From the IMG/VR virus record IMGVR_UViG_3300046694_000223, positions 102,581 to 166,580 of that record: DNA of 64,000 nt; one strand, 5' to 3'. Below the pieces are notes generated by a model. That model did not search any database, had not been told where the DNA came from, and saw nothing but the letters and a program-made list of their open reading frames with translations. Positions 2,229 to 22,609 of the stretch are shown in pieces (positions within the stretch are counted from its first letter, which is position 1; each line of letters starts with the position of its first letter). Position numbers and translations under genes: made by a program. The DNA is from a virus.

Positions 2229-2532
2229 AAACGTCAATAAATTCAAATGTTTTTGTTTTTGTCAATACAAATGTTGTTGCACAAAATTTCCTTACATAAA
2301 TTAGGATAATAGCGTGTTTTGGTGTTGACATTCTCTGAAAATTGAAAAGTACTGCATTGCTACCAGGAATACGAATATATGTGACAAATATCCCTCTTAT
2401 TTTGTATTAACCACATATCTTTACTGTTAAACATAAAAACACTTCGAATACTCAAAAATTACAAAAAGACATAATAAAAAACCCTTTGTTTATAAGGGTT
2501 TTTTATTCGCACTTCTTGATGAAATTCGTATT

Positions 2533-2688
2533 TTATGAAACTACAACAACTGTCAGCGGTATTGCATTTAACAAAAGAACTGCTGCGGCCATCCCGAGAT
2601 TCATCTTTGTTGTTTTATACTTTCCAATTAACCCGGGTACTGCCAAGCTTAATGACACAACGAAAACGATAATCGCAAGTGTATGCAT
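2533..2688 (-). CDS. Small membrane protein (51 aa, not in the ORF track)
   Basis: MHTLAIIVFVVSLSLAVPGLIG...AAAVLLLNAIPLTVVVVS; GGAGG RBS; two hydrophobic segments. Confidence 0.7.
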   Translation of the reverse strand: MHTLAIIVFVVSLSLAVPGLIGKYKTTKMNLGMAAAVLLLNAIPLTVVVVS

Positions 2689-2754
2689 TGCTATTCCTCC
2701 TTGTTCATTTATGAATTTATTTTACCTCAATTCATTGATGAACACAAAGAGGAA

Positions 2755-2973
2755 TCAATTTCTTTTAAGAATATTGCCAACAACCTTAAAACTCTCATCT
2801 TGTTCAAGATAGTCCTCAAGTCCACACCATTCTCTCTGTTGTCCAATTTCAACCCCATATGCTCTATTAACATCATCCCATAAGACAACGGCCTTAATCA
2901 TGCTATCGCCCATTAAAACGTCTCCTATCCTAACATAATCACCATTAAGCACTGATCCAGTGTTATGATTCAT
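2755..2973 (-). CDS. YopX-like small phage protein
   Basis: GDVL..VVLWDD...FKVVGNI resembles the YopX C-terminus; AAAGGAG RBS. Confidence 0.55.
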   Translation of the reverse strand: MNHNTGSVLNGDYVRIGDVLMGDSMIKAVVLWDDVNRAYGVEIGQQREWCGLEDYLEQDESFKVVGNILKRN

Positions 2974-3044
2974 TGTTCGTTCTCCTTTGGTTTTGATAAA
3001 AGATGCCTTTCATTCTCCTAACCCTCGAATTGTGTAACAAACAT

Positions 3045-3230
3045 TTATTTTGATCCTTGGTAAACTGGCAATTCTAATCCCATTAGTTCCATCTTGCTCC
3101 AATAAGATTCCGTAACTGTCGCACGTAATAATTCCTCTATACTAACGCTTCCACCAGATGCTTCAATATCATGTTTAAGTGCCTTCCATACAGACTCATG
3201 CAAAGATAGGTCGATGGGCATAGTAATCAT
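3045..3230 (-). CDS. Hypothetical phage protein
   Basis: 61-aa ORF with AAGGAG RBS. Confidence 0.65.
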   Translation of the reverse strand: MITMPIDLSLHESVWKALKHDIEASGGSVSIEELLRATVTESYWSKMELMGLELPVYQGSK

Positions 3231-3301
3231 TTATACATCACTCCTTATTTTAATACTTCGCAATATACACCTATCATTTAACTTTATAAAACATTCCATT
3301 A

Positions 3302-3535
3302 TCAGAAGTTAAAACATAACGCCGTAATTTCTGATAACCATAATATTAAAACTAGACATCCAGCGGTTAAACAAAATCCAATTAACGAAAATACGATTTT
3401 CAAGTATTTCCGCTCACTCATTTCTTTAAACGTTAAGATAAACTCACTTTCACTATGATATGACATTATCCCTCTATATAAATATTTACAGAGCATTACA
3501 GTCGCATAAGAGTAAATTAGAAAAAATACAAGCAT
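3302..3535 (-). CDS. Small membrane protein
   Basis: Two hydrophobic stretches; AAGGAGAG RBS. Confidence 0.65.
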   Translation of the reverse strand: MLVFFLIYSYATVMLCKYLYRGIMSYHSESEFILTFKEMSERKYLKIVFSLIGFCLTAGCLVLILWLSEITALCFNF

Positions 3536-3568
3536 TGTTCGTACTCTCCTTTTAAATTAGCCAATTGA

Positions 3569-4087
3569 TTAAGATTCAACAGCCAATAGACCGCGAACAC
3601 GTTCAATTTCATCATCGCTGTGAACTGTCCCACCAGTATTAAAGTCAATATACCATTGAAGAACTTCTTTGCGGCTTTTTAAATCATTAATATTGATTTT
3701 AACACCTTGGGTCATTCTTGGGCTGTCTTCATATTCTCTAAAGTAACTACCAAATACCCTTATTTCATTATGTATAAATCTCTTGATTGCTGTTGCTCTT
3801 TGTAGTCCATCTACACAGACAAAATCATTTAAATAATCACCCGATGTCCATCCAGCACAATTCAAATAAATTACCCTTGCTGTCTTGCCGCCCTTAAGAA
3901 GATATTCAATATATGCAATTTGCTGTTCCTCACTCCAAACATGTCCACGTTGGAAATCTGGATTCATTTGTAATCCTTCTTTTTCAAACTCCTCGATTGC
4001 CTTAACGAAGCGTTCTAAATCATAATCACACTCCCAATTTCCAACACGGGTGAATTGAGGAATATCTCTAAATTTCATACTATTCAC
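3569..4087 (-). CDS. DUF262 (ParB-like/GmrS N-terminal) domain protein
   Basis: NPDFQRGHVWSEEQQ and VDGLQRATAI motifs. Confidence 0.85.
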   Translation of the reverse strand: MNSMKFRDIPQFTRVGNWECDYDLERFVKAIEEFEKEGLQMNPDFQRGHVWSEEQQIAYIEYLLKGGKTARVIYLNCAGWTSGDYLNDFVCVDGLQRATAIKRFIHNEIRVFGSYFREYEDSPRMTQGVKININDLKSRKEVLQWYIDFNTGGTVHSDDEIERVRGLLAVES

Positions 4088-4116
4088 TTCCTTTATTTTT
4101 TGATGAAACAGTCATT

Positions 4117-4278
4117 TCAAGATATTTTTGGGTCAACTTTACAAACATCTGAAGGCAACGATTCCTTCCCCGCTAACGCACGAGCAAAAGATCCATCCTT
4201 AAATCCTGCTCGAATCGCCTCTCTAAAGCCTTTTTCATATTCTTCTTTGGCTTCCTGTTTCTGCTCATTATTGTTCAT
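4117..4278 (-). CDS. Hypothetical phage protein (likely start MNNNEQ)
   Basis: AAGGAGAG RBS upstream of the internal Met; stop overlaps the junction palindrome. Confidence 0.5.
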   Translation of the reverse strand: MNNNEQKQEAKEEYEKGFREAIRAGFKDGSFARALAGKESLPSDVCKVDPKIS

Positions 4279-4516
4279 CTTGATCTCTCCTTTTTCTGAT
4301 AAGTTTAGCCATTTTATTGTGAGAGGAGAAATTAATTGTTTTAAACGTCTCAAAATCTCCGCTTAAGCCCCGAACTTGCACTGACTTGTCTTCAGGGTGA
4401 ACCTCATATCCCATACCCTCAACTTCTTTGTCGAAATCGAAGATAATCTTAAACCCTTGTGACTCATATACTAACAATCTCTCTTGAATATCTAAATGAA
4501 AATTTTTATTTTCCAT
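4268..4516 (-). CDS. Hypothetical phage protein
   Basis: 82-aa ORF with GGGGAGG RBS. Confidence 0.65.
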   Translation of the reverse strand: MENKNFHLDIQERLLVYESQGFKIIFDFDKEVEGMGYEVHPEDKSVQVRGLSGDFETFKTINFSSHNKMAKLIRKRRDQDEQ

Positions 4517-4557
4517 GATAATCCTCCCCTTTTTATTATTATAAAATAGTTATATTA

Positions 4558-4896
4558 TTAAGATTCAAAATGTCTTTTCCAGCCCATAACAGATACATTA
4601 AAAATATTATCAACACCTTCTAGCCTAACAGTTCTTTCGCTCTTGTCTTTTTCTGCAACTTTGTTTAAATTAACTGCAACTCCCAGATCAACATTAACAA
4701 GATTACTGTTGCTAGAAGCCAAAACCAGACATACTTCTTCAAAAGTTTGAGGATAATTCAAATCTCCATAAACAGTAGTAATTACAACTTCTTTCCGATT
4801 GACCACTCTAACACTTCTTACTGCCAAAATCTCATCATCATTAACCCATACGACTTCATTAGCATTATTTTCGTTCTTTTTAATTAGTCCAATCAT
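4558..4896 (-). CDS. LytTR-like DNA-binding domain protein
   Basis: LVNVDLGVAVNLNKV resembles the LytTR motif; GGAGG RBS. Confidence 0.55.
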   Translation of the reverse strand: MIGLIKKNENNANEVVWVNDDEILAVRSVRVVNRKEVVITTVYGDLNYPQTFEEVCLVLASSNSNLVNVDLGVAVNLNKVAEKDKSERTVRLEGVDNIFNVSVMGWKRHFES

Positions 4897-4927
4897 CTCA
4901 AGACCTCCGTAGTCATTTTATCTAAAA

Positions 4928-5134
4928 TTAAGCTATATTGACAATTCTAACAAACTGCTGTTTGCTCACATACCATCCTTTTGGGTTATCAATATTGTAC
5001 CGTTCACTCTCTTGATCTGTAACCCAGAAACTCGCTCCACCATAATTATTATTAGTGACATATAATTGACCATGTTTTTCAAACTCAACAAGATCACCTT
5101 TGCCAACTTTAGCAATTTTAGCACCAAAATCCAT
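4928..5134 (-). CDS. Hypothetical phage protein (SH3-like beta-rich)
   Basis: 68-aa ORF with GAGGAG RBS. Confidence 0.6.
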   Translation of the reverse strand: MDFGAKIAKVGKGDLVEFEKHGQLYVTNNNYGGASFWVTDQESERYNIDNPKGWYVSKQQFVRIVNIA

Positions 5135-5243
5135 TTTTGATCATCTCCTCTTATTTTAAAACCCTTATAAATATTGACTTTTTTCGACCCAATATCCTCA
5201 TGAAATCAACCTTTTATAAATACAATCTACAAACTTTGTGGTT

Positions 5244-5480
5244 TCATTCTGGTTTTAACATACTCAGATCCGCTTCCACATCACGTCCAAAAGTTACGCG
5301 CAACTTATGCATAATCTCTGATTCACGACACGATAATTTAAGTTTCACTCTTTCATCATCATCTAGTTCAAACTCATGTGTGTATGGTAAACTCCTAACC
5401 AAAATCCACTTCATGGCTTCATCCTCCGTCCTCGATGCACTATATGTGTATGCCATACACTTTAATTGATCATTTTTCAT
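5244..5480 (-). CDS. Hypothetical phage protein
   Basis: 78-aa ORF in the co-oriented array. Confidence 0.55.
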   Translation of the reverse strand: MKNDQLKCMAYTYSASRTEDEAMKWILVRSLPYTHEFELDDDERVKLKLSCRESEIMHKLRVTFGRDVEADLSMLKPE

Positions 5481-5698
5481 AAATATTTTACTTAAGCATA
5501 CTTCGCCATCCTAACATGCAATCCCTTAATCTCAGCCTCAACCATCATTAACCGTTGTGGCGATGACTTAGAAACCGCAGAATCCTTCAGTGCTTCCAGA
5601 TCGCGAATTTGTACAGCAATGATTGATCTCATTTTAGCATTATCACTATTCAATTTACCATTCTCCTTCATATGTATAATATCCTTCTTGACTCCTTT

Positions 5699-5745
5699 AT
5701 TTTACCACACACTTAATTATTGTTCAACATATATTTATTTATTAA
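5699..5745 (-). promoter_or_regulatory. Early sigmaA promoter with upstream AATAAATATAT box
   Basis: TTAATAAATAAATATATG-TTGAAC-17-TAAAAT with extended TG. Confidence 0.75.
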
Positions 5746-5887
5746 ACGAAAATGGCGAACACATATTTATGTCCGCCACATCAGTTATTTATGATTTTGA
5801 CTATATTTCTTAGCAGCATCAAGTAATCCAATTTCTACCCCTTCTACAGACACTACAACGCATTTTCCGCCCTTAACTCGTCCATTC

Positions 5888-6061
5888 TTATACATAACTG
5901 TATTCCTTTCCAGAACGGTTGTAGACGGCTACAGAAGACCCGTAGCGCTGTGTAAGTGAATAAACTTTGTCCAATACAATCCAGTAAAATGATTCTTTAT
6001 TTTGCTGCTGATCAATAGTTTCAACTACTTGATTATTAACAATAAAGTCCCATGTTTTCAT
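5888..6061 (-). CDS. Hypothetical protein (57 aa, not in the ORF track)
   Basis: MKTWDFIVNNQVVETID...; AAAGGA RBS. Confidence 0.55.
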   Translation of the reverse strand: MKTWDFIVNNQVVETIDQQQNKESFYWIVLDKVYSLTQRYGSSVAVYNRSGKEYSYV

Positions 6062-6114
6062 ATATATATCATCCTTTGTATATTTATTTTTATAATTTTA
6101 ATAAAATTTCTCTT

Positions 6115-6276
6115 TCACAACCTTCTAAATTCCAGTTCCATAATTTCATCTGAATACCTGAACGATTTATTCAAGAATCCAATGTTATGAATTCCTTTAC
6201 TCACTCCGGCATCATATTTATACAGGTTGTATCTGAGCAATATTCGTTTCCATTCTATTTTAAGATATAAAATCAC
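6115..6276 (-). CDS. Hypothetical phage protein (likely GTG start)
   Basis: GGGAGG RBS before the GTG; bounded by palindromes at 6101 and 6303. Confidence 0.55.
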   Translation of the reverse strand: MILYLKIEWKRILLRYNLYKYDAGVSKGIHNIGFLNKSFRYSDEIMELEFRRL

Positions 6277-6311
6277 TTTCAACCTCCCATTTATATATTT
6301 ACGTGAAAGAC

Positions 6312-6686
6312 TTATTTCATCTGCTCGTAAAAGAATATCCAATATGGATAGCCATTTGAAACATTGCAGCCCTCCATAATTGCAGTAAGCTTGATTGTCC
6401 TGCCAAGGTATAGACCAAGAAATTTTTCAGTATCTTGCGGTTCTCTATTATTAAAGTATTGTCCTTGATTCGACCATATCTCCAAACAATATTTATTATA
6501 TTTATCATAATCCCATTGTAAAAGTCTATCTGAGTAAACACAGGCATTATTCTCTGAATAATCTTGCTTCCAAATGACATATGGGTCATAGCTATATGGA
6601 TGCGTTTCTCTTGTTCGTTTAACTTCTTCACCCTTTAAGTCGCGATACATTGAGTGAGCTTTCCATTTCAAATAATCATCATTCAT
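6312..6686 (-). CDS. Hypothetical phage protein
   Basis: 124-aa ORF bounded by palindromes at 6303 and 6710. Confidence 0.7.
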   Translation of the reverse strand: MNDDYLKWKAHSMYRDLKGEEVKRTRETHPYSYDPYVIWKQDYSENNACVYSDRLLQWDYDKYNKYCLEIWSNQGQYFNNREPQDTEKFLGLYLGRTIKLTAIMEGCNVSNGYPYWIFFYEQMK

Positions 6687-6726
6687 TCTTAATTTTCCCC
6701 TTCATTGCTGTGAAATACTTCTTTTA

Positions 6727-6942
6727 TCATCTTAGATCGGATCTTTGAATAACAGTTTCTCCTTCATTTACAAGCTTTGCTACAAGTTCAATATATGGGC
6801 TGTCATATTTCTTTCTGGATATAACCGTTCTGTAACCGCCAATTCTCAAAATTTCACCAGTTGCAATTATCCCATCATAATGAAAATAAAAATCTGAATT
6901 GCTATTCAAAATAGTTAAATGATAATTTGTTCTATTGCTCAT
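6727..6942 (-). CDS. Hypothetical phage protein (likely start MSNRTN)
   Basis: Bounded by palindromes at 6710 and 6959; AAGGGG RBS. Confidence 0.6.
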   Translation of the reverse strand: MSNRTNYHLTILNSNSDFYFHYDGIIATGEILRIGGYRTVISRKKYDSPYIELVAKLVNEGETVIQRSDLR

Positions 6943-6980
6943 ACATGCCCAACCCCTTGTAAAAGAATCCATTTATCGGC

Positions 6981-7229
6981 TTATTGGTTTGCTGCATACT
7001 TCCATGCCTTTGTATATCCTGAATCATTCCCATCTCGTTTGACTAACTCGTCATAACAAACATCTACTTGCCAATGATAATCAGATCTTGGATTGTTATT
7101 GGCGTAAGCCGAAAGCCAAATTTTTTGTTTAGTTTCATCCATCAACTTTTCATAATCCATCTCAGTAATTTTATCAACATATTCAATCTTTGGTACTCCA
7201 TAATTATCTTTACCTGTATACTTTTCCAT
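6981..7229 (-). CDS. Hypothetical phage protein
   Basis: 82 aa, GGAGG RBS, bounded by palindromes. Confidence 0.7.
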   Translation of the reverse strand: MEKYTGKDNYGVPKIEYVDKITEMDYEKLMDETKQKIWLSAYANNNPRSDYHWQVDVCYDELVKRDGNDSGYTKAWKYAANQ

Positions 7230-7265
7230 TTCGATTTTGCCTCCTATGGTTTCTTGATAAATTAA

Positions 7266-7466
7266 TCATTTGCTCATAACTTTAAATTCATCTCTTTCAA
7301 ATACCGGAGTAATCTCACCATATTTGCCAGATATAGAGCCGCCGCCGATATGAAACCATCTTCCATCCCATTGTTTTATAAACCCCCAATGCCCTATGTA
7401 TTGAGATTCTTTGTTGATGATTGATACTTTTTTACCAATCATGTTCTCAGGTTTCAATTTTCCCAA
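7266..7466 (-). CDS. Small SH3/KOW-like protein
   Basis: IGKKVSII...G.WGFIK pattern; bounded by palindromes. Confidence 0.55.
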   Translation of the reverse strand: MGKLKPENMIGKKVSIINKESQYIGHWGFIKQWDGRWFHIGGGSISGKYGEITPVFERDEFKVMSK

Positions 7467-7486
7467 CTCCTTCTGAAAGGATCATA

Positions 7487-7675
7487 TTACTGCAATTCAA
7501 TCTCATATACGTCTTCAATCCATTGTCTAATTGTATCAGACCATTGGCTATAACCTAGATTCCATGCAACCAAATTATCAAACACATCTTCTTTGGACAT
7601 TTTATCAACTTCTTCTGGTGTCACTTCCAATCTTTCACTCATCGTCTTGTATATGTATGACGGATACTTTTTCAT
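7487..7675 (-). CDS. Hypothetical phage protein
   Basis: 62 aa, AAGGAG RBS, bounded by palindromes. Confidence 0.7.
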   Translation of the reverse strand: MKKYPSYIYKTMSERLEVTPEEVDKMSKEDVFDNLVAWNLGYSQWSDTIRQWIEDVYEIELQ

Positions 7676-7711
7676 GTTAATTCTCCTTTTTGATAAAAAT
7701 ATATAACTTCA

Positions 7712-7960
7712 TTACAACTGTTCTAGTACTTCATCATAGAACTTTTCTGGCAACATCCTTGATGTTTCTCTTCCAGCAACAAATGGATATGACCACTCTT
7801 CAAAGTTTAATCGGATTCTGAATTCTCCATTAATTCCTGATTTCTCTGCACCAGCATATTGATATGTATTTGGTATTAGTTCATCTTTTCTCATTTCTCC
7901 AAGGATTTTAAGCAGTGACTGTCTGTTAATTTCAATTGTGTTTGTGCTCACTATGATCAT
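7712..7960 (-). CDS. Hypothetical phage protein
   Basis: 82 aa, GAGGAG RBS, bounded by palindromes. Confidence 0.65.
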   Translation of the reverse strand: MIIVSTNTIEINRQSLLKILGEMRKDELIPNTYQYAGAEKSGINGEFRIRLNFEEWSYPFVAGRETSRMLPEKFYDEVLEQL

Positions 7961-8359
7961 CTCCTCATGAAAATCTAGAGTTACTCTTTCAGTGCTTCAT
8001 CCATCATTTTTTGAATACGTTTTACATCATCAATTCTTTCATCGTCCCTATTGCCTCTAGCCCATTTCCATAAGATATTATCAATCAGTTCAAGATCGTC
8101 TTTATCAATTTCTAGATTAAATAATTCCTTTTTTATGATTTTCACTAAACACTACCACCCTTCTTATTATGCGGCCTTCACTTTATGGATCAAGATAATC
8201 CCTTTATCATCCTTACACATTTCTACAAACTGTTTCATTTCTCCTTCATCATCAAAACTGTACACATTCACTGCTAACTTGTCACAAATCTTTTCAATGA
8301 TTTTTACTTGATGCATTAATCCGTTTCACCTCATGTATGTATGTTTCTTATCTGTAATT

Positions 8360-8406
8360 ATCTTATCACATAATTATTATATAATCAATATATATTTATT
8401 AATTAA
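8360..8406 (-). promoter_or_regulatory. Early sigmaA promoter with AATAAATATAT box
   Basis: box-TTGATT-17-TAAGAT with extended TG. Confidence 0.7.
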
Positions 8407-8418
8407 AATTAATATTCC

Positions 8419-8601
8419 CTAAATTTCTATATGTACTCTCCCCTGGTTAGTGCACTTCATCAACCTAACATTGCTAACCCATGGATCACTCTGCCAACAT
8501 TTATACACCTTGTTAGCCACCGCAAAAGACGATATAAAACCAGTTTCAAATGGATGAGATGAATGTTCTGCTTCAATTAGATAACGGTCATATGATGACA
8601 T
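8419..8601 (-). CDS. Hypothetical phage protein
   Basis: 60-aa ORF with AAGGAG upstream. Confidence 0.5.
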   Translation of the reverse strand: MSSYDRYLIEAEHSSHPFETGFISSFAVANKVYKCWQSDPWVSNVRLMKCTNQGRVHIEI

Positions 8602-8716
8602 ATGGGGCCTTCAGCTCCTTTTAATTTTGTATTAGTACAACGAATAACAAAAAATACACACCGATTATATTCTAGATGTGTATTTTCATAATTGTGATAT
8701 GTATTTGTATATTTAT

Positions 8717-8884
8717 TTATAACAACGCTGCTACAGCAACTACAACAACTATGAAGACTACACTGACAATGATTATTGCTTTCTCAATATCTGCTACTAC
8801 ATCGGGAAACGTTTTAATTTTTTCTTCGCGCATACTCATGATAATATTACCCTGATCGTCACGACAGCGGATTGCTGTTTGCAT
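8717..8884 (-). CDS. Small C-terminally anchored membrane protein (55 aa, not in the ORF track)
   Basis: MQTAIRCRDD...AIIIVSVVFIVVVVAVAALL; AAGGAGG RBS. Confidence 0.65.
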   Translation of the reverse strand: MQTAIRCRDDQGNIIMSMREEKIKTFPDVVADIEKAIIIVSVVFIVVVVAVAALL

Positions 8885-8911
8885 TGAAAATTCCTCCTTT
8901 TATTTAATCTA

Positions 8912-9010
8912 TCAACCAACAACTTTTACAATCCAAAATCCCCATACCACAATAGCAGCAACTAACATCCAATTGTCAAACCAAAAATCCTTAACTTTCA
9001 CCCTCAACAT
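8912..9010 (-). CDS. Single-pass membrane peptide (32 aa, not in the ORF track)
   Basis: MLRVKVKDFWFDNWMLVAAIVVWGFWIVKVVG; GAGGAGG upstream. Confidence 0.5.
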   Translation of the reverse strand: MLRVKVKDFWFDNWMLVAAIVVWGFWIVKVVG

Positions 9011-9012
9011 AT

Positions 9013-9222
9013 TCATTCATATTCCTCCTCATCGTTAATATTCATCGTCACAGCCTCCTCATTGCCTTTCTGCCGCATTCTCTGGTGAATACTATATATA
9101 CTTATTCCTTTAACATATTGACACTTGTAGCAAGTCACAGGAAGCCCGTTAGATATACAGTAATAGTACGCTGCTTGTGTAACGGGCTTGTTGCAGTAAG
9201 TGCAAGTGTGATTATCGCTCAT
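9013..9222 (-). CDS. Small Zn-finger protein
   Basis: CTYC...C...CYKC. Confidence 0.65.
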   Translation of the reverse strand: MSDNHTCTYCNKPVTQAAYYYCISNGLPVTCYKCQYVKGISIYSIHQRMRQKGNEEAVTMNINDEEEYE

Positions 9223-10229
9223 AGTGAAGAAATATATTTGTCATACAGTTCTTGCAGTCCCTTTGTGCGTCCTTCGATTGCACTCTTCTTTGTTCCTCCA
9301 GCTCCACAATGTTTACGATATGCATCTGATTTGTTCCATGTTTTTGAATAGTCATGTAAGAATGGAATTAGATTATGATTAAATTCATTGTTTACAATTA
9401 GATTCACAAACGACACAAGATTAATTTTAGTAACAAATTTATTGTATTCGGGAAAAGCCTGATTGATCATGTTAAATGCTTGAGTAACTTTATCAACAAC
9501 ATCTTCCGTAATTTCATTTTCGCTCACTGCTTTTTCAACATCTTTATTACCGAACGCTTCCCATTCATAACCACCAACCAACACCAAAGATTGAAGAACA
9601 GATATTTGACGTTCAGACTTCTTTACTGAGCCATCAGGAAAGTGCGCAGTAGTTGTGTATAAAGTGTTATTAGTCACTGTATCATGAACATACTGCTGAA
9701 CTTTAGATGAGGCTGAAACAAGCGCCAGATGTTCCTTGGACATTGGAACAGAGGAATTAAGGCGATAGAAAATTTGAGAAACTACTGTTTCTTCGTCATC
9801 GTCATCTTCAAGTTCAATTACGCGAATGGTTAGTGAATATCCGTTTAAAGCATTTTGCACTTCTTCGTCCAGTTCTGAATATTTCTTTCCTGCTATCTCA
9901 TGCATTTCACCTGTTGATTCAATATATACGGGTGGCAGGTCATCAGTAAGCGCAAATTTGTCGTTTCTGTAATCATAGATAGTGTTTAATCTTTGAAGCC
10001 CATCCAAAACATCATACACATTTACCATCTTCCCATTAACTTCTCTTTGATGTTTGATTGCATACACATCTGGAATAAATAAACGTAAAGCTGAATCAAT
10101 CAAGAGTGATCTATTTACTGGCTTCCACTGGCCTCCAGGACGTTGCAGAGGATTATCAAAGACAATAGTTCCACGATTAATGCCCGTTACAATCTCATTA
10201 ATATTTCTTTGCCATGCTGATCTTTTCAT
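9219..10229 (-). CDS. DUF262 (ParB-like/GmrS-type) domain protein
   Basis: NPLQR..QW, LIDS, VLDGLQRLNTI, FYRLNS motifs. Confidence 0.85.
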   Translation of the reverse strand: MKRSAWQRNINEIVTGINRGTIVFDNPLQRPGGQWKPVNRSLLIDSALRLFIPDVYAIKHQREVNGKMVNVYDVLDGLQRLNTIYDYRNDKFALTDDLPPVYIESTGEMHEIAGKKYSELDEEVQNALNGYSLTIRVIELEDDDDEETVVSQIFYRLNSSVPMSKEHLALVSASSKVQQYVHDTVTNNTLYTTTAHFPDGSVKKSERQISVLQSLVLVGGYEWEAFGNKDVEKAVSENEITEDVVDKVTQAFNMINQAFPEYNKFVTKINLVSFVNLIVNNEFNHNLIPFLHDYSKTWNKSDAYRKHCGAGGTKKSAIEGRTKGLQELYDKYISSL

Positions 10230-10243
10230 TTATAAAACCTCCG

Positions 10244-10468
10244 TCAATTGTTATTGTATTTTTCTTTCAATTCATTTAGATCAATGTTTAAAATTATAGA
10301 TAAATTCATTAGTTCATCTGCGGATAAGTTATTGCGGATCAACTTGCCACTAAAGGTTTTTTCATTCATTCCCATTCGTTCAGCAACCATAAATATTTTT
10401 AATTTTCTATCGTACTTTATTATCTTCTTGATGTAGTCTCCCATGTTGAAATCAGTTATTGTAATCAC
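10244..10468 (-). CDS. Cro/C1-like HTH regulator
   Basis: VAERMGMNEKTFSGKL...LSIILNIDLNEL. Confidence 0.75.
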   Translation of the reverse strand: MITITDFNMGDYIKKIIKYDRKLKIFMVAERMGMNEKTFSGKLIRNNLSADELMNLSIILNIDLNELKEKYNNN

Positions 10469-10589
10469 CTTCTTACTTCATTTCTCCTGCTTTCTTAATT
10501 CAATCTTACCATAATAATTCTTCAATATAAAGTCTTTTCTTCATATTGAAGAATTATTACCAGATAAAATTGACATTTCATTTGGTCTA

Positions 10590-11150: not shown

Positions 11151-11198
11151 AGAATACACTATACACAATTTATTGTCAACTATATATTTATTCATTAA
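11151..11198 (-). promoter_or_regulatory. Early sigmaA promoter with AATAAATATAT box
   Basis: box-TTGACA-17-TATTCT. Confidence 0.75.
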
Positions 11199-12196: not shown

Positions 12197-12270
12197 TGTT
12201 ATTCCTCCAAAAAAGATATTTGATCTTAGTATAACATGAAGTTATTAGAGCTTATGAAATGAGTAATTTA

Positions 12271-12462
12271 TTAAATGTCTGCCAATTCTTCAATAGTAAC
12301 GTGTCCATCTTTGATGAACGTATCACTTACACCAAATTCACCGTTTCTGTCAAAAAATATATTCACTCCAGCATTTGAACAAAGATAAGTTCCCACTTTG
12401 GATTTATTTAAGTTCTTGTACGTTATTTCGTATGGTACTCCACGTTCGAATTTCATGTTCAT
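12271..12462 (-). CDS. Hypothetical phage protein
   Basis: 63 aa, AGGAGG RBS. Confidence 0.65.
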   Translation of the reverse strand: MNMKFERGVPYEITYKNLNKSKVGTYLCSNAGVNIFFDRNGEFGVSDTFIKDGHVTIEELADI

Positions 12463-13392: not shown

Positions 13393-13515
13393 TCTAATTC
13401 GCTCCTTTAGAATATGTATTATCTTCTTCTTGTTTTAATTATACTCACTTCAGAAATAATTGCAATACTTTTATTATATTTATTTTTATAAACATATCAT
13501 GAAATATGGTATTTA

Positions 13516-14100
13516 TCAAGATACTTTGTCTAATTCAACTGCAATTTCTTGCTTCCAGTTAATAAGTGCAACAATATTACGTTGCAATTCTTTATTGCTG
13601 AGATAAGTCTCACTATTATTCATGCTGTCGCTCATCGATTCAATCTCATTGCTCACTGCTTCCTTAATATCATGAAGATATCTACTTGCATAATTTAATG
13701 GGAAATTACCATTCCAATCTCGAAGAGAATAAAAACAGGTTCCATCCGAGTAACTTTGTTTATGTAAAGAAAGCACTTCGCCATTTTTAGAGTTTGATTT
13801 AAATAAAATTTCATTGTTTACAATCTTCTTCTGCCCCTTTATTTCTTCCCCGGCCATATAACAGGCTCCGCAAGATTCACTATCAAAATCTGAATTTAAT
13901 TTAATTAATGTATTATCAATTAAACAATATATATTTGAATCTACAATATAATAGGACTTTCCGCTGTTAAATCGTTTATCTTCTACCCACTCTTCGTTAA
14001 TATTTTTGTTGTATACAATAACTTCAAATTCATATTTAAGATTGCCGAATTTATCTTCAAATTGATTTTTATCAAAATTCATTCTTTTCAAGAAAACCAC
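13516..14100 (-). CDS. Hypothetical phage protein
   Basis: 194-aa ORF; stop overlaps the palindrome at 13499. Confidence 0.7.
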   Translation of the reverse strand: MVFLKRMNFDKNQFEDKFGNLKYEFEVIVYNKNINEEWVEDKRFNSGKSYYIVDSNIYCLIDNTLIKLNSDFDSESCGACYMAGEEIKGQKKIVNNEILFKSNSKNGEVLSLHKQSYSDGTCFYSLRDWNGNFPLNYASRYLHDIKEAVSNEIESMSDSMNNSETYLSNKELQRNIVALINWKQEIAVELDKVS

Positions 14101-14350: not shown

Positions 14351-14368
14351 TATCTCCTTATAAAATTA

Positions 14369-15183: not shown

Positions 15184-15285
15184 CTCTTCATTAGGAATAA
15201 CTAAATTATAGCATGTATAAATTCATAGTTCAACATATATTTATTAATTAAAAAAGACCCGTTAAGGTCTGTTTTAAAAAGCCGT

Positions 15286-15723
15286 TTACACACTTATTTC
15301 ACATTCTAAAACTAAATCGATTAATTTTATAGTTGGCTCCCATGGTCTTTTTTCAATAGATCCGGTTAATACCGTTGTAGTCATATTATTAATAAAAAAA
15401 TTATCAGTAGAACAAATCCCATGTGACTTTAAAGCTTCTAAATAATCCTTTTCTTTTTTCAAGCCTTTAGAGTGACAGTACCATCTTGTGAGCATGCCTA
15501 CTAGTAAATCATCTACACAAAAGCAAAAATCTGGATTCGCAAGAGCCATTTTAAATCTAATTGTTGGTGTTTCGTAATAAGTAATCTCCGCTAAGACTTT
15601 TTGACCCTTGGAGAATTCAACATTCCCAGTGAAATTAATCCCCCATATTTTATTAGCAAAAAAATTAGCTTTTCGTTTTAGTTCTGCACCGTACTGTTCA
15701 TAATTTATGGGGGATTTTTTCAT
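15286..15723 (-). CDS. SprT-like fold protein lacking HExxH
   Basis: ANKIWGINF...DDLLVGMLTRWYCHSKG...LKSHGICST resembles small phage SprT-like proteins. Confidence 0.4.
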   Translation of the reverse strand: MKKSPINYEQYGAELKRKANFFANKIWGINFTGNVEFSKGQKVLAEITYYETPTIRFKMALANPDFCFCVDDLLVGMLTRWYCHSKGLKKEKDYLEALKSHGICSTDNFFINNMTTTVLTGSIEKRPWEPTIKLIDLVLECEISV

Positions 15724-15738
15724 TAGAAATTCGCTCCT

Positions 15739-16104
15739 CTATTCTTCTTCAATAAAATTCCCTTCGTTGTCGAACTGTTCACTATCTTTACTGTCAATAA
15801 AAACTTCTTTAAAGAATTTAATATCATTCTGATCATCAACAACCATTAAGGCTTCATCACGAGTATTAACATAAATTTTTGCATTTTTAGGTGAGAAGTC
15901 ATATCCCGCAATACCCTCTAGATAACTCATTGTTTCGGTTGGAGCAAACAGGATTACCTCTTCCTCAGAAAATACATACGTAAACAGTTCAAGGCTGTCT
16001 ACTGTTAGTTCGTAATATTCTGCTATGTATCCCATTTGTTTTGGAGTTAACTGCGCACCTTCGTTAGCAATCTTGTTGTACTTTTCCGAAATAATATTAA
16101 TCAT
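15739..16104 (-). CDS. Acidic hypothetical protein
   Basis: 121 aa, very D/E-rich; promoter TTGACT-17-TACAAT at 16158-16186. Confidence 0.7.
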   Translation of the reverse strand: MINIISEKYNKIANEGAQLTPKQMGYIAEYYELTVDSLELFTYVFSEEEVILFAPTETMSYLEGIAGYDFSPKNAKIYVNTRDEALMVVDDQNDIKFFKEVFIDSKDSEQFDNEGNFIEEE

Positions 16105-16273
16105 CTAATCATTCTCCTTTTAATATAATATATTATGCGGTACTTGACCACGTAATTATTGTAACATGTTGTTTATAATTAGTCAACTATTTATTTATTT
16201 TTATTTATTAAACTATTTGAAATAAGTGTTTTATCATGACTTGGTTCAATGAGGGCCAACATCTGATTGACCA

Positions 16274-19200
16274 CTATACAATTTCTTGTTGACCCCAGTT
16301 CAACCTAGTGTATCCGTCTTGATCCTTTTCTTTCGTCATCAGCATGTTTAGAATATCGAAATCAACCCCGAAACGCTCAAATAATTCTTCATCATCTATG
16401 TTGTCATCTTTCATGAATAAATTAAGCTTTTCTTTGCTCAATATCAATTTAAGCAAATTACTTTCGATACTATTTTCATATGTTACGTAATGAATTTCTT
16501 TATTATCGGCCTCAGAATCAAAACGAATAAATCTCGCTGTAAACTGGTGTAAGCTGGCCCCGTTCCAGGATAATTCCGTTACAATGATTTTATTTACATA
16601 ATTTATGCTTACACTACTAGACAATGATTGCTGAGTGCAAACCATAATAGGGTTGGTATGTTTTTTCATTTCTAAAATCATTTCTTTACGCTGCTTAAGG
16701 CTCATATCTTCACCTGTAACAATAAATAATTTGCGTTCTGGGAAAAGCTCTCTAATATATCTCGCATAACTATAAACTGTCTTCTTAAAACGACACCCGA
16801 TAACTACAGGTTCATTATTCCATTCCTTTATCATAGCAAATACTTTTTTAAATTTAGATGAGTATCCTTTACCGCTATATTCATTAAATAAGTGTGCAGC
16901 GCTGCAACTTCTAATTAACATATTGAGTTGCTGAATGATTTCTAACATCCTATCTTTTCGACTGTTTCCAGTTCTCTGTACGTTTCTAGCCATTTCATAA
17001 AATTCATCAACAATCTTTTTATATAGTACATATTCATGGTTATTAAATGTGCAAGTATCTTGAAATCTACTTGCAATGGATCTTCCCGTAATTTCTTCAA
17101 ACGTTCTAGTAATAATTGTAGAGTCAATAATATTTTTAAGAATATCTGAATTATAAATATGTTGCGTAGACTGCGACACGCCGAATACAGTTATTTTTTC
17201 TGGGATGTGGCTTTCCTGGAATAACTTTTGCCCTTTATGATATTGCGGATAAGGCTTTAAATAGTGTGAATTTCGTTCTGTTTTCAGCTCTTTAGTTTTT
17301 TTATCTTGTACATAAATTTCTTCACAGCGATTAATAAAATTCACCGATGAATTAAAGAGCAATTGAAATTGCGGAAATGCTTCCCCTATTGAATTTCTAA
17401 CACTTGTACCCGTAGTCAAAAGTTTATGTTTTGCATTCCTAAATACATTCAAAGTCGCTTTTGTTCTTTTGCTTGTCATTGTTGCTATACTGTCGGATTC
17501 ATCCAGTACTAGGCCAATTTTATGCTCGTTTAAGCGTATGAATTTCTTAATATGTCTTTGGTACTTGGTTAACATATTAAACGTCACTAGAACGATGTCA
17601 GAAGGCTTAATTCTTGCAATACTTTTTAATGAATCAATCTTAACAAATGGGATTCCGTAACTATCTAAAGCAGATTCAAAAGTGCCAGTAATTGCAATCG
17701 CTGGAGCAATAATAAACACGTTTTTAACATTGCTGTGTTGTAAATGATATTGAGCATAAGCAATTGCTGCCAATGATTTACCGCCTCCACAATCCCACTG
17801 TAACAGGCCGTAACGCTTCTGTAGCATCTTTCCTATATCTTCCTTTTGAATTCTGTTCAACTCAATTACACGGTCATTTAGAGAGTCATTAAGCCTATAT
17901 GAATTTAACCATTCAGAAATATAACCGTTCTGCTGCATTTCTTTAAATGGCTTACTTTGCTGTTTGTATGCTTTCATTTTTCTATTCAATAATTTTCTAT
18001 AGGTTTGATCTTCAAATGGATATTCTCCCTTTATAATCATGTCAATAAAACTAATCTCTTTGACTCCCGTAAACTTAGACAGATATACTTTATTCTTATG
18101 AGAGTATCCCTTTAATTTTAATCCGCTATTGGTCTTAATCAGTTTAATACAATCTTGCTCATTTTTATGTTGATTCTTTAAGACTCGCTTAAGATATGAC
18201 AATACTTTATTAGGCGTTAAACGGACTTTTTCCCATTCTTCGAACTTCATTCCTTCGGGTTTTTCTTGATCGTAATATTTATTGACTTGTTCCATACATG
18301 CGGCATATTTGTTGTTAATATTTTTTGATCGTTTGATATCAAATAGGTATTTTTTAACTTTTGACTGAAATTCTAAATTATTTTTACTTTCCTTTTGGTT
18401 ATTCTGTACTTGCTCAAAGAATAATTTATGCTTTATTTTTTCCTTTTGTTCAATTACTGGTGCAATATATGTATTATAAATTGATTCGCTGTTTAAGTCT
18501 GAAATTTCGCTTAACATTGATAGTCTTGTAATATACAAATTATCATTTGTTACATGTTCACTCTTTTTAGAAAAGAACATAATTTTTGTACGGAATTTAT
18601 CGACTCCGCTAGAATTAAAAGAATCAGACGGTAACTCCGCTTGATGGATAAAATTGTACATATCATTCATTTGTTTGATCATTCCACCGTCTGAGAAATC
18701 ATCTGATAAAAAGGAAACCGGAACAATTAAGGCAAGTATCCCGCACGGTTTCAAAAGTTCATAGGCTTTAATGCAATAGTATAGTTGACTCAGATATTCC
18801 GTTCTATTTATATAAAGTTTTAAATTAAAAGGTGGATTACCTAAAACATAATCGAAGGTTGTCCTTGGGCTATATTCGCGTACATCTCCGCATGTTGCGT
18901 CAATATCAGGATAGAGATATTTCATAACTTTATAATTATTTATATTTAGTTCATTTGCATATACGTTTTGATGGTTCGGCAACCAATTAATAAAGTTTCC
19001 ACTACCCGCCGTTAAATCTGCAACTAACTGGAATTGATCAATTTTTAAGCAATTAATAAGAAATTTAGATAATGAATGAGGTGTAAAGAATTCTCCTACT
19101 TCACGCAATTTTTTAGCCTCAGTGAATGAGTAAAAGGAATCGAAGTCTTTAAATTCTAAACCATGCAAACCACCCGAACCGCTGTACATGTCGTATATAT

Positions 19201-19333
19201 TCTGCTTAGTAATCCCATGTTTTGAACATGAATCATTCTGAATCATAAATTGAATTTTTTCGTTTATTTCTTTGCGCTTGTTTTGTGGAACTACTATATT
19301 TGAAATTTGATACACTTGTTTATCCTCCATCAA
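16274..19333 (-). CDS. N6-adenine DNA methyltransferase-SF2/SNF2 helicase fusion (DarB-like)
   Basis: GEFFTP, DLTAGSGNF, GNPPF MTase motifs; WDCGGGKS Walker A, LDESD Walker B, TTGT, C-terminal helicase domain. Confidence 0.85.
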   Translation of the reverse strand: MMEDKQVYQISNIVVPQNKRKEINEKIQFMIQNDSCSKHGITKQNIYDMYSGSGGLHGLEFKDFDSFYSFTEAKKLREVGEFFTPHSLSKFLINCLKIDQFQLVADLTAGSGNFINWLPNHQNVYANELNINNYKVMKYLYPDIDATCGDVREYSPRTTFDYVLGNPPFNLKLYINRTEYLSQLYYCIKAYELLKPCGILALIVPVSFLSDDFSDGGMIKQMNDMYNFIHQAELPSDSFNSSGVDKFRTKIMFFSKKSEHVTNDNLYITRLSMLSEISDLNSESIYNTYIAPVIEQKEKIKHKLFFEQVQNNQKESKNNLEFQSKVKKYLFDIKRSKNINNKYAACMEQVNKYYDQEKPEGMKFEEWEKVRLTPNKVLSYLKRVLKNQHKNEQDCIKLIKTNSGLKLKGYSHKNKVYLSKFTGVKEISFIDMIIKGEYPFEDQTYRKLLNRKMKAYKQQSKPFKEMQQNGYISEWLNSYRLNDSLNDRVIELNRIQKEDIGKMLQKRYGLLQWDCGGGKSLAAIAYAQYHLQHSNVKNVFIIAPAIAITGTFESALDSYGIPFVKIDSLKSIARIKPSDIVLVTFNMLTKYQRHIKKFIRLNEHKIGLVLDESDSIATMTSKRTKATLNVFRNAKHKLLTTGTSVRNSIGEAFPQFQLLFNSSVNFINRCEEIYVQDKKTKELKTERNSHYLKPYPQYHKGQKLFQESHIPEKITVFGVSQSTQHIYNSDILKNIIDSTIITRTFEEITGRSIASRFQDTCTFNNHEYVLYKKIVDEFYEMARNVQRTGNSRKDRMLEIIQQLNMLIRSCSAAHLFNEYSGKGYSSKFKKVFAMIKEWNNEPVVIGCRFKKTVYSYARYIRELFPERKLFIVTGEDMSLKQRKEMILEMKKHTNPIMVCTQQSLSSSVSINYVNKIIVTELSWNGASLHQFTARFIRFDSEADNKEIHYVTYENSIESNLLKLILSKEKLNLFMKDDNIDDEELFERFGVDFDILNMLMTKEKDQDGYTRLNWGQQEIV

Positions 19334-19382
19334 AAGAGAATCAGCACTTTATATAACTGATTCCCCGTATATTATTTTATTC

Positions 19383-21737
19383 TTATGCGGTTTGTTGGTT
19401 GTGACCACAATATTCATTTGCAAACTTGGCTGCAATTGTATGAGAGATAAACTCAATTTCCACTTTACCGTTTTTCAATATTTTTATTGATTTAACTTTG
19501 GAGAAGTTCAATTCATGTACTCCGAAAACTTCTTCATTTTTTCCATTCATGATCTTCCGTGACATAGTATCTAGTTCATTATTAAGTACCGTAAAGCCTG
19601 TTTCAAAGTGGTATATAGCGTTAAATATCATTTCAACTTTATTATTGCTATTATAGTGTATTTTCTCGGTTCCCCATTTGGACCACGATGTATCGATATA
19701 TAGATAATCCTTTATCGAAATTTTATTTCCTTTTGGAGTTATATCTTTGTGACTTACTGAATCGCGTAACTTTTGTTTAATTTCCGCTTCTGCTTTTTCA
19801 GTAAAATTGTACCCGTCTAATTGAATCGTTATCTCATCTATAATATTATTATACGTTACATTTGAATCAAACTTCTTTTGAATTTTATCTTCGTTGATTG
19901 TAACATTATATTTATTTTTAAAATAATAACAAACAATTGAAATGAATCTATCTTTAATTTTGACAATGTTTTTTTCTAAGTCATATGAAGCAAATCCAGC
20001 GTCAAAACTTGTGCTTTTAGGGTATTTTGTTCCAAGCACTCCTACTTCTGAGTATTTAATTCCGTGTGCGGTGACTTGCGGTTTAATTGCCTGCAATTGT
20101 TCATTTAGATTGTTATAGGCCGCTATTGTCTGTTTGTAGATTGATTCTTGATCTTTGCAGAAATCCAAATCTTCACTGGAAACTTTTTGATCTGCTGTGA
20201 TTTCAATATTGTCAAATTTATTAAAGATATCATCAAAAGAGTCAAAAGAAATAGGTTCATCTGAGTTGTAATCTGTATTTTCATTAATATATGTATTATC
20301 CATTGTATCACCTTCCTGTTTCGTTTCTGCTGTTTCATTTTGGTTAAACTCATAATAGATTATGTTATCGTTATGACTGTCTGTAACTGTTTTAGAGGCC
20401 GTTTCTTGCGTGTTCTGTGTTTCTGTGTCGCTATCTCTGTTAACAGTGTTAGAGGGCATTACAAGAGCCTGAGCAAATTCCAAGCGCTCCGGTGTTTGTT
20501 TGGCGTACCACTTCCCGCCACGCCGAGACCACTTAAAGCCGTTTGCGTACAAGGTGGATAATTCTTTTTCTGTTAGGGTTTTGGTGAACTTCAATTCAAT
20601 ACCGTTCAATTCTTCATTGATTGTCATTGTAACGCTTTTAGAAGCCTCTACAATTTCGCCTTTTGCTGTTTCTTCATTAACTGTTACAACTTCTTCAGCA
20701 TCAACAGTAACAGCCTCTTTACTTGCTCTAGGGGCCTTGCCAACCTTAACCCATTTTTCAACTTCTGTTACTTCATCAAAAGTAGTCATTTGATGAACGA
20801 TTGTTTTTCCTTCTTGAATAGATTTCATCATTCTTTCTTCCAGGTCGTAGTATCTAGTGCAGTTTTTCAATTGTTGATATCCTCTTTTTTCACTGCCCAC
20901 ATTTTCATAGGAAATACGAGTTTTGCCGTTCACTTCATAGATGTTTGTTACCAACCAGAATCCGCCACGATGAGCAAATTTGAAATAATCTCCAACTTCA
21001 ATATTTTTCTTATCAAATGGTACAGGCCTAGTAACCTTTTTAGTTACCTGTTCAGTCACTAACTGCATTGTTTCAAAATCGGCAGATCCAACTTCTGAAC
21101 CATCTGTAACAGTAATTGTATTAACAATTTTTTCAATTCTGGAGATGAATTTATTAAAAGCGTTGATTGCTTTTTGTTTGTCTTCGTCTTCGTGATTTGT
21201 TGCGCCGTCCCAATTATATGGAAGATCGGAAAATTTACCGATACCTGTACCTTTATCAACTAAAACGCCATCTTTTTCAATGTGCCATTTTGAAGTGGAG
21301 GGATTAACATTTTTAAATTCTGGATAGATTGCAACAACCTCTTCAGTCCAGCCTTCGCTCTGTTTTTCAAGCAGTTTTTCGATTGCTGATTTTGCAGATT
21401 CCTCTTCTTGTTGGCTTGCACCTTTTTCAGTAGTCATGTTTTGAAGTTTTGCAATTTTGTTTTGGATATCTTTAGTTGTACTATTGAATGATCTTTTTGT
21501 AACTGTGCGGCCACTATCACTAAGAGAAGAAACATCAACCAGCAACACATAACCATTTTTAGAAGCAATACCACGACTCCAGGAAGCTGGGCAGTAATAA
21601 TCTGTCATGCTGTCAGATTGATCAGGAGAATAACCAAAAACTTCCCATCCTTTAGCCATAAGAGCATGAGCGATGTTTACCCTTGCTTCTCTGAAATCGT
21701 AATAGTTATATGTTCTAGCCATTTGTAAAACCTCCAT
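19383..21737 (-). CDS. Large multidomain (polyvalent-type) protein, likely start MARTYN
   Basis: DUF2786-like KIAKL..GASQQEEESAKSAIEKLL; NGIELKF..GFKWSRRGGKWYAKQT domain; C-terminal IKILKNGKVEIEF. Confidence 0.7.
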   Translation of the reverse strand: MEVLQMARTYNYYDFREARVNIAHALMAKGWEVFGYSPDQSDSMTDYYCPASWSRGIASKNGYVLLVDVSSLSDSGRTVTKRSFNSTTKDIQNKIAKLQNMTTEKGASQQEEESAKSAIEKLLEKQSEGWTEEVVAIYPEFKNVNPSTSKWHIEKDGVLVDKGTGIGKFSDLPYNWDGATNHEDEDKQKAINAFNKFISRIEKIVNTITVTDGSEVGSADFETMQLVTEQVTKKVTRPVPFDKKNIEVGDYFKFAHRGGFWLVTNIYEVNGKTRISYENVGSEKRGYQQLKNCTRYYDLEERMMKSIQEGKTIVHQMTTFDEVTEVEKWVKVGKAPRASKEAVTVDAEEVVTVNEETAKGEIVEASKSVTMTINEELNGIELKFTKTLTEKELSTLYANGFKWSRRGGKWYAKQTPERLEFAQALVMPSNTVNRDSDTETQNTQETASKTVTDSHNDNIIYYEFNQNETAETKQEGDTMDNTYINENTDYNSDEPISFDSFDDIFNKFDNIEITADQKVSSEDLDFCKDQESIYKQTIAAYNNLNEQLQAIKPQVTAHGIKYSEVGVLGTKYPKSTSFDAGFASYDLEKNIVKIKDRFISIVCYYFKNKYNVTINEDKIQKKFDSNVTYNNIIDEITIQLDGYNFTEKAEAEIKQKLRDSVSHKDITPKGNKISIKDYLYIDTSWSKWGTEKIHYNSNNKVEMIFNAIYHFETGFTVLNNELDTMSRKIMNGKNEEVFGVHELNFSKVKSIKILKNGKVEIEFISHTIAAKFANEYCGHNQQTA

Positions 21738-21767
21738 GTGAATAATATGTATTAACTTCTTATCTAT

Positions 21768-21814
21768 ATATTAAACCATTGTTAGCTTAAAGTCAACATA
21801 TATTTATTCTTTAA
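21768..21814 (-). promoter_or_regulatory. Early sigmaA promoter with AATAAATATAT box
   Basis: box-TTGACT-17-TAATAT. Confidence 0.7.
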
Positions 21815-21838
21815 ACAAAAAAGAAGCCTTTTGGCCTC

Positions 21839-22132
21839 TTAGTTTTTCATCATCCAAGACAAGGCCTTAGATGGATATCCTTTTGTGAAAACAACTTTCC
21901 ATTGTCCGTTATCTTCAAGTACGCTCAATGTCCCTGCTCCATATTTACCCTGTTCTGATATACCATATTGAATACCTTCAAACATAACTTTTTTACCTGA
22001 TTTAGCGTAACCCGTTTTTGTCATGTTTGATCCAGTAAGAGATACTTCTGTAAATTTGGCGCATTTTGCTTGCTCTTTGTGTTCTTGCATTGCCGCTTTG
22101 ATTCGTGCCGCTCTATCATAGTCCCATTCCAT
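21839..22132 (-). CDS. Hypothetical phage protein
   Basis: 97 aa, promoter TTGACA-17-TATTAT (22170-22217), GGAGG RBS. Confidence 0.7.
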   Translation of the reverse strand: MEWDYDRAARIKAAMQEHKEQAKCAKFTEVSLTGSNMTKTGYAKSGKKVMFEGIQYGISEQGKYGAGTLSVLEDNGQWKVVFTKGYPSKALSWMMKN

Positions 22133-22363
22133 AGAAATCGCCTCCGATATGTATTACTTCTTATCTATAATAATAAACCATTCGTTTGTTGTTGTCAATC
22201 ATATATTTATTCATAAAATAAAAAGAGAGAATTCGCATTCTCCCCTTAATGAAATCAACTGTATTATATTTATACATTATTATGTATATTATTCATCAAT
22301 TATACACCTTTATAGATCTTATAATGAATACTTATGCATTAAAAACTTCATAAAACAAGTATT

Positions 22364-22609
22364 TCATGAGAAGTTGAGTAGGTTACAACACATCTGAGCA
22401 TCTTTTTCATTTTTAAATGAAACATAGTCATTATCACCAATAAATCCACTACTTTCTGCATATCCACCACATTCTTTTACAATTTTGATTTGATTTTTGT
22501 TTAGTAGGCTAAATTTCAATTCAAAATCAAAATCATTCTTATCATAAACGAAAAATGTATCTGTGTTATCAATAGTTTTATTGACATTCAATTCCCGAAC
22601 TTTTTCCAT
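22364..22609 (-). CDS. Hypothetical phage protein
   Basis: 81 aa, promoter TTGCAA-17-TAAGAT; stop lies within the palindrome at 22350. Confidence 0.65.
   Translation of the reverse strand: MEKVRELNVNKTIDNTDTFFVYDKNDFDFELKFSLLNKNQIKIVKECGGYAESSGFIGDNDYVSFKNEKDAQMCCNLLNFS

Follow-up and report, generated by a model that had tools for sequence, protein, structure and literature searches.

The stretch of DNA analysed here (the window) comprises 64,000 nucleotides, bases 102581–166580 of the 166,580-bp virus record IMGVR_UViG_3300046694_000223, a record with terminal repeats, and carries at its gene junctions a family of short palindromic sites, two TRAAA/TTTYA arms around a 6-bp spacer, together with genes for two tyrosine recombinases. 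The protein encoded at 57453–58535 is 60% identical to SPbeta YomM, that at 32238–33305 matches SPbeta YopP at 29%, and the closest named relatives of a methylase-helicase encoded in the window come from Paenibacillus; the source is an SPbeta-like phage, with Paenibacillus as its likely host group. The annotated phage set and the first viral and genome scans yielded no close relatives, which were recovered later via the methylase-helicase protein. The relatives compared below include G003 (a 174.5-kb relative, about half of it alignable to the window's genome), G004, the P. odorifer prophage L106 and a P. barcinonensis prophage; L109 and L110 also denote relatives. For comparison on the Bacillus side we used 13 B. 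subtilis SPbeta-group genomes. Coordinates of all sites and genes are window positions unless stated, and spacers are written in gene sense; we call a site, as identified by its spacer, an address, and the DNA between two such sites a slot.

2478–2502, second palindrome (AAAACCC-N11-GGGTTTT), centre about 38 bp from the centre of site 2519 (composite site)
2519–2536, site, spacer tacgaa; stop codon of 2533–2688 inside the arm; same spacer in G003
2996–3013, site, spacer ggcatc
3552–3569, site, spacer tggcta, also in G004
4103–4120, site, spacer tgactg
4541–4558, site, spacer taacta, also in G004
5158–5182, second palindrome beside site 5200 (composite site)
5200–5217, site, spacer ggttga (ggttgg in G003)
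6101–6118, site, spacer gagaaa
6303–6320, site, spacer taagtc; both flanks unrelated in G003
6710–6727, site, spacer gaagta; both flanks unrelated in G003
6959–6976, site, spacer ggattc; both flanks unrelated in G003
7257–7274, site, spacer tgatta
7473–7490, degenerate site, spacer tgatcc; intact in G003 and G004
10564–10581, site, spacer tgtcaa
10824–10841, site, spacer ttttaa
11591–11608, site, spacer cccgtc, also in the P. odorifer prophage L106
11804–11821, site, spacer gagtga, also in G003, G004, L106 and L110
11834–12196, minus strand, example cassette, a 120-amino-acid open reading frame (ORF) filling slot tactca-gagtga
12254–12271, site, spacer tactca, also in G003, G004, L106 and L109
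13031–13048, site, spacer acaaga (acaagg in G003)
13499–13516, site, spacer accata, also in L106 and L110
14360–14377, site, spacer tgataa, also in L106 and L110
16217–16234, site, spacer cactta
22350–22367, site, spacer tacttg
38272–38289, site in the late region, spacer ctattg
41780–41797, site in the late region, spacer ctccca

All ten copies quoted in the original prediction are present, each in its place and with the right spacer, and its count of about 23 between 2519 and 22367 was close: a position weight matrix (PWM) yields 21 strong copies and the degenerate one at 7473, whose spacer is common to a relative, 22 in all. The confinement of the array to that interval did not hold, as copies span the whole early arm and a few lie in the late region, the entire 166.6-kb genome having about 87, mostly at ~28–126 kb of the genome. 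In fourteen copies the site overlaps or adjoins the stop codon of the minus-strand gene upstream, as had been claimed; the proposed pair of boundary sites for every gene between 6101 and 7984 is right up to about 7470, beyond which the candidates at 7693 and 7968 have one good arm only. The proposed enrichment at junctions is borne out by 43 of the 46 strict copies, against 21% of random positions, a statistic resting on a crude gene caller.

The spacing of the arms is sharply defined. Exact copies of ATRAAA-Nx-TTTYAT number 27 in the genome at x=6 and 0–2 at every other x in the range 0–15, and the PWM finds 80 matches at spacer 6 vs ≤5 at spacers 3–5 and 7–9. The inner TRAAA of each arm is fixed and the outer bases are loose, with the arms reaching weakly to 11 bp, an 11-6-11 geometry that agrees with the tyrosine-recombinase core-site geometry originally ascribed to the repeat. 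SPbeta and its relatives carry the same site, 28–45 per genome in the DNA examined. Promoters in the window have a separate motif, at ~5731, 8392, 11184, 12919, 14873, 15237, 21800 and 22203, and a TTGACA-17-TATTCT sequence is seen on the minus strand near 11170. An AT-rich, operator-like ATTTA-N5-TAAAT, analogous to the SPBRE motif discussed below, has 19 copies in the genome, directly preceding sigma-A-type promoters of the minus strand; in the window it stands at the same eight positions and at ~24691, 26058, 26689 and 27514.

The spacers vary from copy to copy, as first noted, and all 87 are distinct; no spacer is repeated in either orientation, where 4.5 repeats would be expected (p 0.012), and only 36 pairs lie within one mismatch of each other against 70 expected, with none of 2000 permutations as low. 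Near-duplicates are likewise depleted in G004 (31 vs 68), SPbeta (5 vs 12.7) and FADO (3 vs 9), and the flanking 6-mers show no such deficit; among the near-duplicates that do occur within genomes, the position of the mismatch is without pattern. Such depletion would follow if like spacers deleted or inverted the DNA between them, and it is unexpected for a regulatory site.

The order of the spacers is conserved where the genes are not. G003 and the window's genome have 54 spacers in common (4.9 expected), and all 54 are collinear (shuffled maximum 17); orthologous sites being recognised via spacer identity, the evidence lies in collinearity and flanks rather than in the identity itself. At 53 of these 54 sites at least one 60-bp flank is unrelated, and at 29 both are; between the partner sites a variable arm position is about equally likely to differ or to agree, so that identity is limited to AAA-N6-TTT. 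The P. odorifer prophage, whose accessory DNA is hardly alignable, has tgataa, accata, tactca, gagtga and cccgtc in the window's order, and the P. barcinonensis prophage also keeps its spacers in the same order. Slot tactca-gagtga illustrates the pattern with four unrelated gene sets in four phages, the 120-amino-acid ORF here and ORFs of 52, 56+52 and 90 amino acids in the relatives. About nine further syntenic site pairs have spacers one base apart, and 9 of 23 mismatches between orthologous spacers fall at the last base, too few to interpret. Over 3 kb of the window, 7490–10560, there is no strong site, against five or six (cagtta, gtctga, ttatgt and ctatat among them) in G003, G004 and L106; addresses can decay or be lost.

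Some sites are composite. About nine or ten have, on either side, a second imperfect palindrome of the AAAACCC-N11-GGGTTTT type ~38 bp away centre to centre, at 2478–2502, at 5158–5182, beside 58827 and in six more places elsewhere in the genome, and G003 retains it at these addresses. In many cases it would be too weak for a terminator, and it is possibly the site of an accessory protein.

The 13 Bacillus SPbeta-group genomes show a like pattern. Alignment blocks begin at the left edge of a site and end at the right edge with nine-fold enrichment, and in site pairs that share just one flank, the spacer is identical in 150/178 and 170/220 cases, against 516/49933 unrelated pairs; the identity of each outer arm tracks its own flank while the spacer stays. 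Spacer order is fixed across these genomes, with no within-genome duplicates except a 15-bp tandem repeat. Gene families found directly behind a site in at least two genomes keep one address in 64 of 67 cases, the other three standing behind more than one spacer, so rare slot changes do occur, and at 30 of 52 addresses the families that follow number between two and six. Among identical tracts of at least 300 bp that border non-homology, 52 of 94 ends fall inside a site, although sites are ~1% of the DNA; the tracts start at or before position 8 and end at or after position 17 (one exception) of the 28-mer, which brackets the AAA plus the spacer. As the original prediction had it, gene content between relatives changes at the sites, with alignment-block edges, unrelated flanks and tract ends in agreement; its recombination between non-identical spacers was not supported, exchanged sites mostly keeping identical ones.

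Two slots in this phage group hold named genes. The phi3T counter-defence (anti-defence) gene nip (PMC11984713) occupies slot gatagt-tattta, 359 bp long in SPbeta and 1352 bp in phi3T, and the phi3T–SPbeta alignment resumes exactly at the right-hand site. The DNA methyltransferase gene mtbP fills slot gatcaa-tttgtc (SPbeta 113658–115065), and there a tract identical between phi3Ts and SPbeta spans one site to the other. In phi3Ts, A-rich stretches of 18–23 bp that match the tcggtc site in its right arm and leader recur near other sites, at ~58068, 70531, 107374 and 120504, and are possibly remnants of older sites.

Published laboratory recombinants bear on the same question. Among the 17 phi3Ts x SPbeta junctions in Suppl. 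Table 1 of bioRxiv 10.1101/2020.05.06.055103, junction 7 is listed with 30 bp of homology and junction N1 as ‘non-homologous’, and the authors do not remark on a motif at the junctions. Junction 7 is phi3Ts 62417–62446, exactly the tgcata site, joined to the SPbeta tgcata site with both flanks unrelated; the SPbeta end of N1 is the first base of 18 bp shared at the tattcc site, where the parents' flanks are unrelated. Two of 17 junctions fall at isolated same-spacer sites, of which there are six (tgcata, tcgtac, agactg, tattcc, ttcaat and gtttta), totalling ~180 bp, vs 68.8 kb of long homology (P ~0.001, post hoc). Of the 128 exact islands of at least 18 bp that phi3Ts and SPbeta share outside their top long matches, five are sites, and both short laboratory junctions are at sites.

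We consider it probable that a tyrosine recombinase uses these sites to replace cassettes between phage genomes, with matching spacers as the guide. The copies would be core sites, each with two ~11-bp arms around a 6-bp overlap region, and strand exchange would require identical or nearly identical spacers. Sites of the same genome would then not recombine with one another, each pairing instead with its same-spacer counterpart in a related phage or prophage that shares the cell, where a tetramer of one recombinase would join same-address sites of the two co-resident genomes. Two such crossovers would replace all the DNA between two shared addresses with the partner's genes, related or not, and addresses would be gained or lost when the partners differ within such an interval. 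As the stop codon lies in the left arm and the ribosome-binding site (RBS) after the right arm, swaps would respect reading frames. No two neighbouring sites have a spacer in common, so circles of single genes are not to be expected. Heterospecific lox and FRT variants recombine only with their own kind, permitting replacement by double crossover (recombinase-mediated cassette exchange); the logic would be the same, the engineered form using two or three variants and the phages a natural array of dozens.

Several observations weigh against this reading. Of the recent tract ends in the Bacillus genomes, 42 of 94 (~45%) lie away from sites, and site-free junctions vary too, 82% vs 97% (p 1e-9, on crude gene calls). 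The orthogonality test is non-significant in the small sets of Perkons, E3 and Sophrita. All 15 remaining published junctions, like every crossover mapped in four hybrid genomes of phi3T and SPbeta, fall within 0.4–20 kb of homology or within short tracts that contain no site; the hybrids, which are uninformative, have their crossovers in identical tracts of 1.4–18 kb, with one in a site-free 39-bp tract. Junction coordinates come from a machine-read table with the offset calibrated on block ends (within 6 bp), and the phi3Ts end of N1 lies 9 bp before the tattcc site and 14 bp ahead of the 18-bp core common to both parents. Whether the arms prefer A or G at position 7 depends on the lineage of the phage and not on YomM identity, and in part of either candidate enzyme's family Lys replaces the second catalytic Arg. 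Geometry, junction position, fixed order, exchange of flanks at the sites, spacer orthogonality and the two laboratory junctions are observed; that a tyrosine recombinase is the agent, and which one, we infer. With most crossovers in long homology, ordinary homologous recombination is the main route between close relatives, and the sites come into play where genes are unrelated.

The candidate enzymes and the sites near them are as follows.

32238–33305, minus strand, YopP-like tyrosine recombinase, 355 amino acids, R-K-HSFR-H-Y intact; candidate enzyme
57218–57235, site upstream of the yomM module
57453–58535, plus strand, YomM-like tyrosine recombinase, 360 amino acids, R182 K213 H284 K287 H310/311 Y320; candidate enzyme
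58827–58844, site of composite type downstream of the yomM module

Both recombinases are found throughout the phage group. The YopP-like protein has the complete catalytic set here, SPbeta YopP having Lys for the second Arg; in the YomM-like protein that Lys is present here, and R182, K213, H284 and Y320 are invariant in 30 homologues. Its predicted structure is a generic tyrosine-recombinase fold only, no nearer XerH than XerA or Cre. In favour of YomM, it is bracketed by the sites at 57218 and 58827 and, at 63% identity to its G003 counterpart where YopP is 96%, is itself exchanged as a cassette in a site-bounded slot. Also in its favour, in SpP and TJE4, with ~10 and ~7 sites respectively, the sole integrase is nearer YomM than YopP; counting against YomM, Ldl1 has only 2–3 sites, phage 949 has few despite both enzymes, and the gene context differs. 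In lactococcal phages of the 949 group the genome end opens with the gene for the YopP-like integrase (148–1167 in phage 949), and the junction motif is weak there. The argument from co-distribution is weak, and we give the YomM-like protein an even chance of being the acting enzyme; the YopP-like protein is a somewhat less likely agent, and another or a host enzyme an improbable one.

The alternative that survives best, which we regard as unlikely, holds that the palindrome binds a dimeric phage protein, as a transcriptional roadblock of the mycobacteriophage stoperator kind or in chromosome organisation, and that in exchange it supplies only 12–21 bp of microhomology for an annealase of the Sak4/YorG type, like lambdoid boundary sequences. 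A second, protein-type palindrome at fixed distance from about nine or ten sites fits protein binding, and SPBRE, bound by MrpR (PMC10516654), is likewise a repeated intergenic SPbeta motif with a recombinase-fold binder. SPBRE is located in promoters, however, and the promoter operator is a different motif from the junction site; analogous as that operator is to SPBRE, a Pfam search of the genome did not find a third, MrpR-like integrase-fold gene. A regulatory site gives no reason for the depletion of near-duplicate spacers. As for annealing, SPbeta encodes the Sak4-like YorG, long-homology crossovers dominate the laboratory recombinants, and a crossover in microhomology would likewise keep the spacer. 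Against it, the arm positions of partner sites are not homogenised beyond AAA-N6-TTT, and sites are only 5 of 128 islands of at least 18 bp, yet both short laboratory junctions are at sites.

The original prediction, in which non-identical spacers let single genes be captured, excised and reordered in the manner of integrons or Tn916, is largely refuted and in our view very improbable. The anatomy is cassette-like, with a stop codon in the site and an RBS right after it; small promoterless genes and the stop codon inside the site recall integrons and Tn916, which use tyrosine recombinases, and three of 67 families do stand behind more than one spacer. Those systems recombine without spacer identity and reorder or move cassettes, integrons at one attI; here the order is fixed (54 of 54 spacers collinear, 64 of 67 families bound to their slot), and spacers at exchanged sites are identical in the 150/178 and 170/220 cases given above, unlike the non-identical coupling sequences of Tn916. 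Neither recombinase reaches the integron-integrase model TIGR02249 (25.7 bits for the YomM-like protein vs a cut-off of 265, no match for the YopP-like one), and a search for attC-type folding found no within-site pairing above shuffled arms.

Still less probable is that the sites are substrates of host XerC/XerD. In the pdif/dif modules of Acinetobacter Rep_3 plasmids (PMC13141974), accessory genes are bounded by 11-6-11 sites, recombination depends on identical or nearly identical 6-bp spacers, and single modules are replaced by two crossovers between replicons. The phage sites match these modules in geometry and spacer identity. The modules differ in their host heterodimer, asymmetric C and D arms, alternating orientation and handful of sites, with repeated spacers that lead to inversions and deletions within the plasmid; the phage array has symmetric TRAAA/TTTYA arms, ~87 unique ordered spacers and neither C/D arms nor alternating orientation, its arms having AAAA/TTTT beside the spacer where the pdif sites listed in that paper have ATAA/TTAT, and in 93 host-genus genomes the strict pattern hardly occurs. 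A hairpin of RNA or of single-strand DNA (as a terminator, a processing site or an attC-like element) would suit an inverted repeat between stop codon and RBS, and was rejected because the arms pair no better than shuffled ones, A.C is as frequent as G.U and the mean RNA energy is −1.7 kcal/mol.

Two further systems bear comparison with the proposed recombinase sites. XerH reads the inner 5 bp of the difH arms and not the centre (PMC5241119), and the information profile of the phage site matches XerH-difH, with one protein on both arms (for the phage, presumably), a 6-bp centre and loose outer bases; difH differs as one chromosomal site for dimer resolution, with no cassettes. The PeSL cassettes of the T4-type phages RB49 and phi1 (PMC2839356) are also repeated intergenic elements marking modular exchange in accessory regions, but they are promoter–terminator stem-loop units with long shared sequence and mini-circles, whereas the phage sites are 16–28 bp, individually addressed, without a hairpin and separate from promoters. 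The array departs from integrons, Tn916, pdif modules and PeSL alike, and works like pdif replacement or heterospecific-lox exchange. Literature searches, with most subscription papers outside reach, found no description of the motif.

PADLOC and PHROG scans of the cassette ORFs gave only two GmrSD-N-like proteins. These GmrSD-N/DUF262-like proteins are encoded on the minus strand at 3569–4087 and 9219–10229, with PADLOC matches to NsnA and PD-T4-2_A, and the short gene stands at a different address in G003 with 70% DNA identity. At the end of the early array a Cro/C1-type helix-turn-helix gene (1446–1676, plus strand) is convergent with a MazF/PemK-like toxin gene (1698–2102, minus strand), with no antitoxin evident adjoining the latter. 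The region 16274–21737 (minus strand) has no internal sites and encodes the N6-methylase-helicase (1019 amino acids) and a 784-amino-acid protein of unknown family, two genes that Paenibacillus prophages keep together.

It has long been asked how phages can swap unrelated genes at gene boundaries and yet preserve gene order; the usual answer is rare illegitimate recombination combined with selection. We lean towards a more specific answer for SPbeta-like phages, in which a genome-wide series of ordered, mutually orthogonal addresses and a recombinase of their own would allow allelic replacement of unrelated accessory genes, counter-defence genes included, between co-resident phages, with selection keeping the 6-bp addresses apart, as in a code. 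The chemistry is familiar; what is unfamiliar is to have orthogonal addresses by the dozen set in order along a phage genome. With so many natural sites that do not cross-react, such a recombinase would be of use in engineering. For the family, which includes the model phages SPbeta and phi3T, exchange points become explicit and predictable from sequence, and the slots offer an objective way to list accessory genes, some of them, such as nip and mtbP, important.

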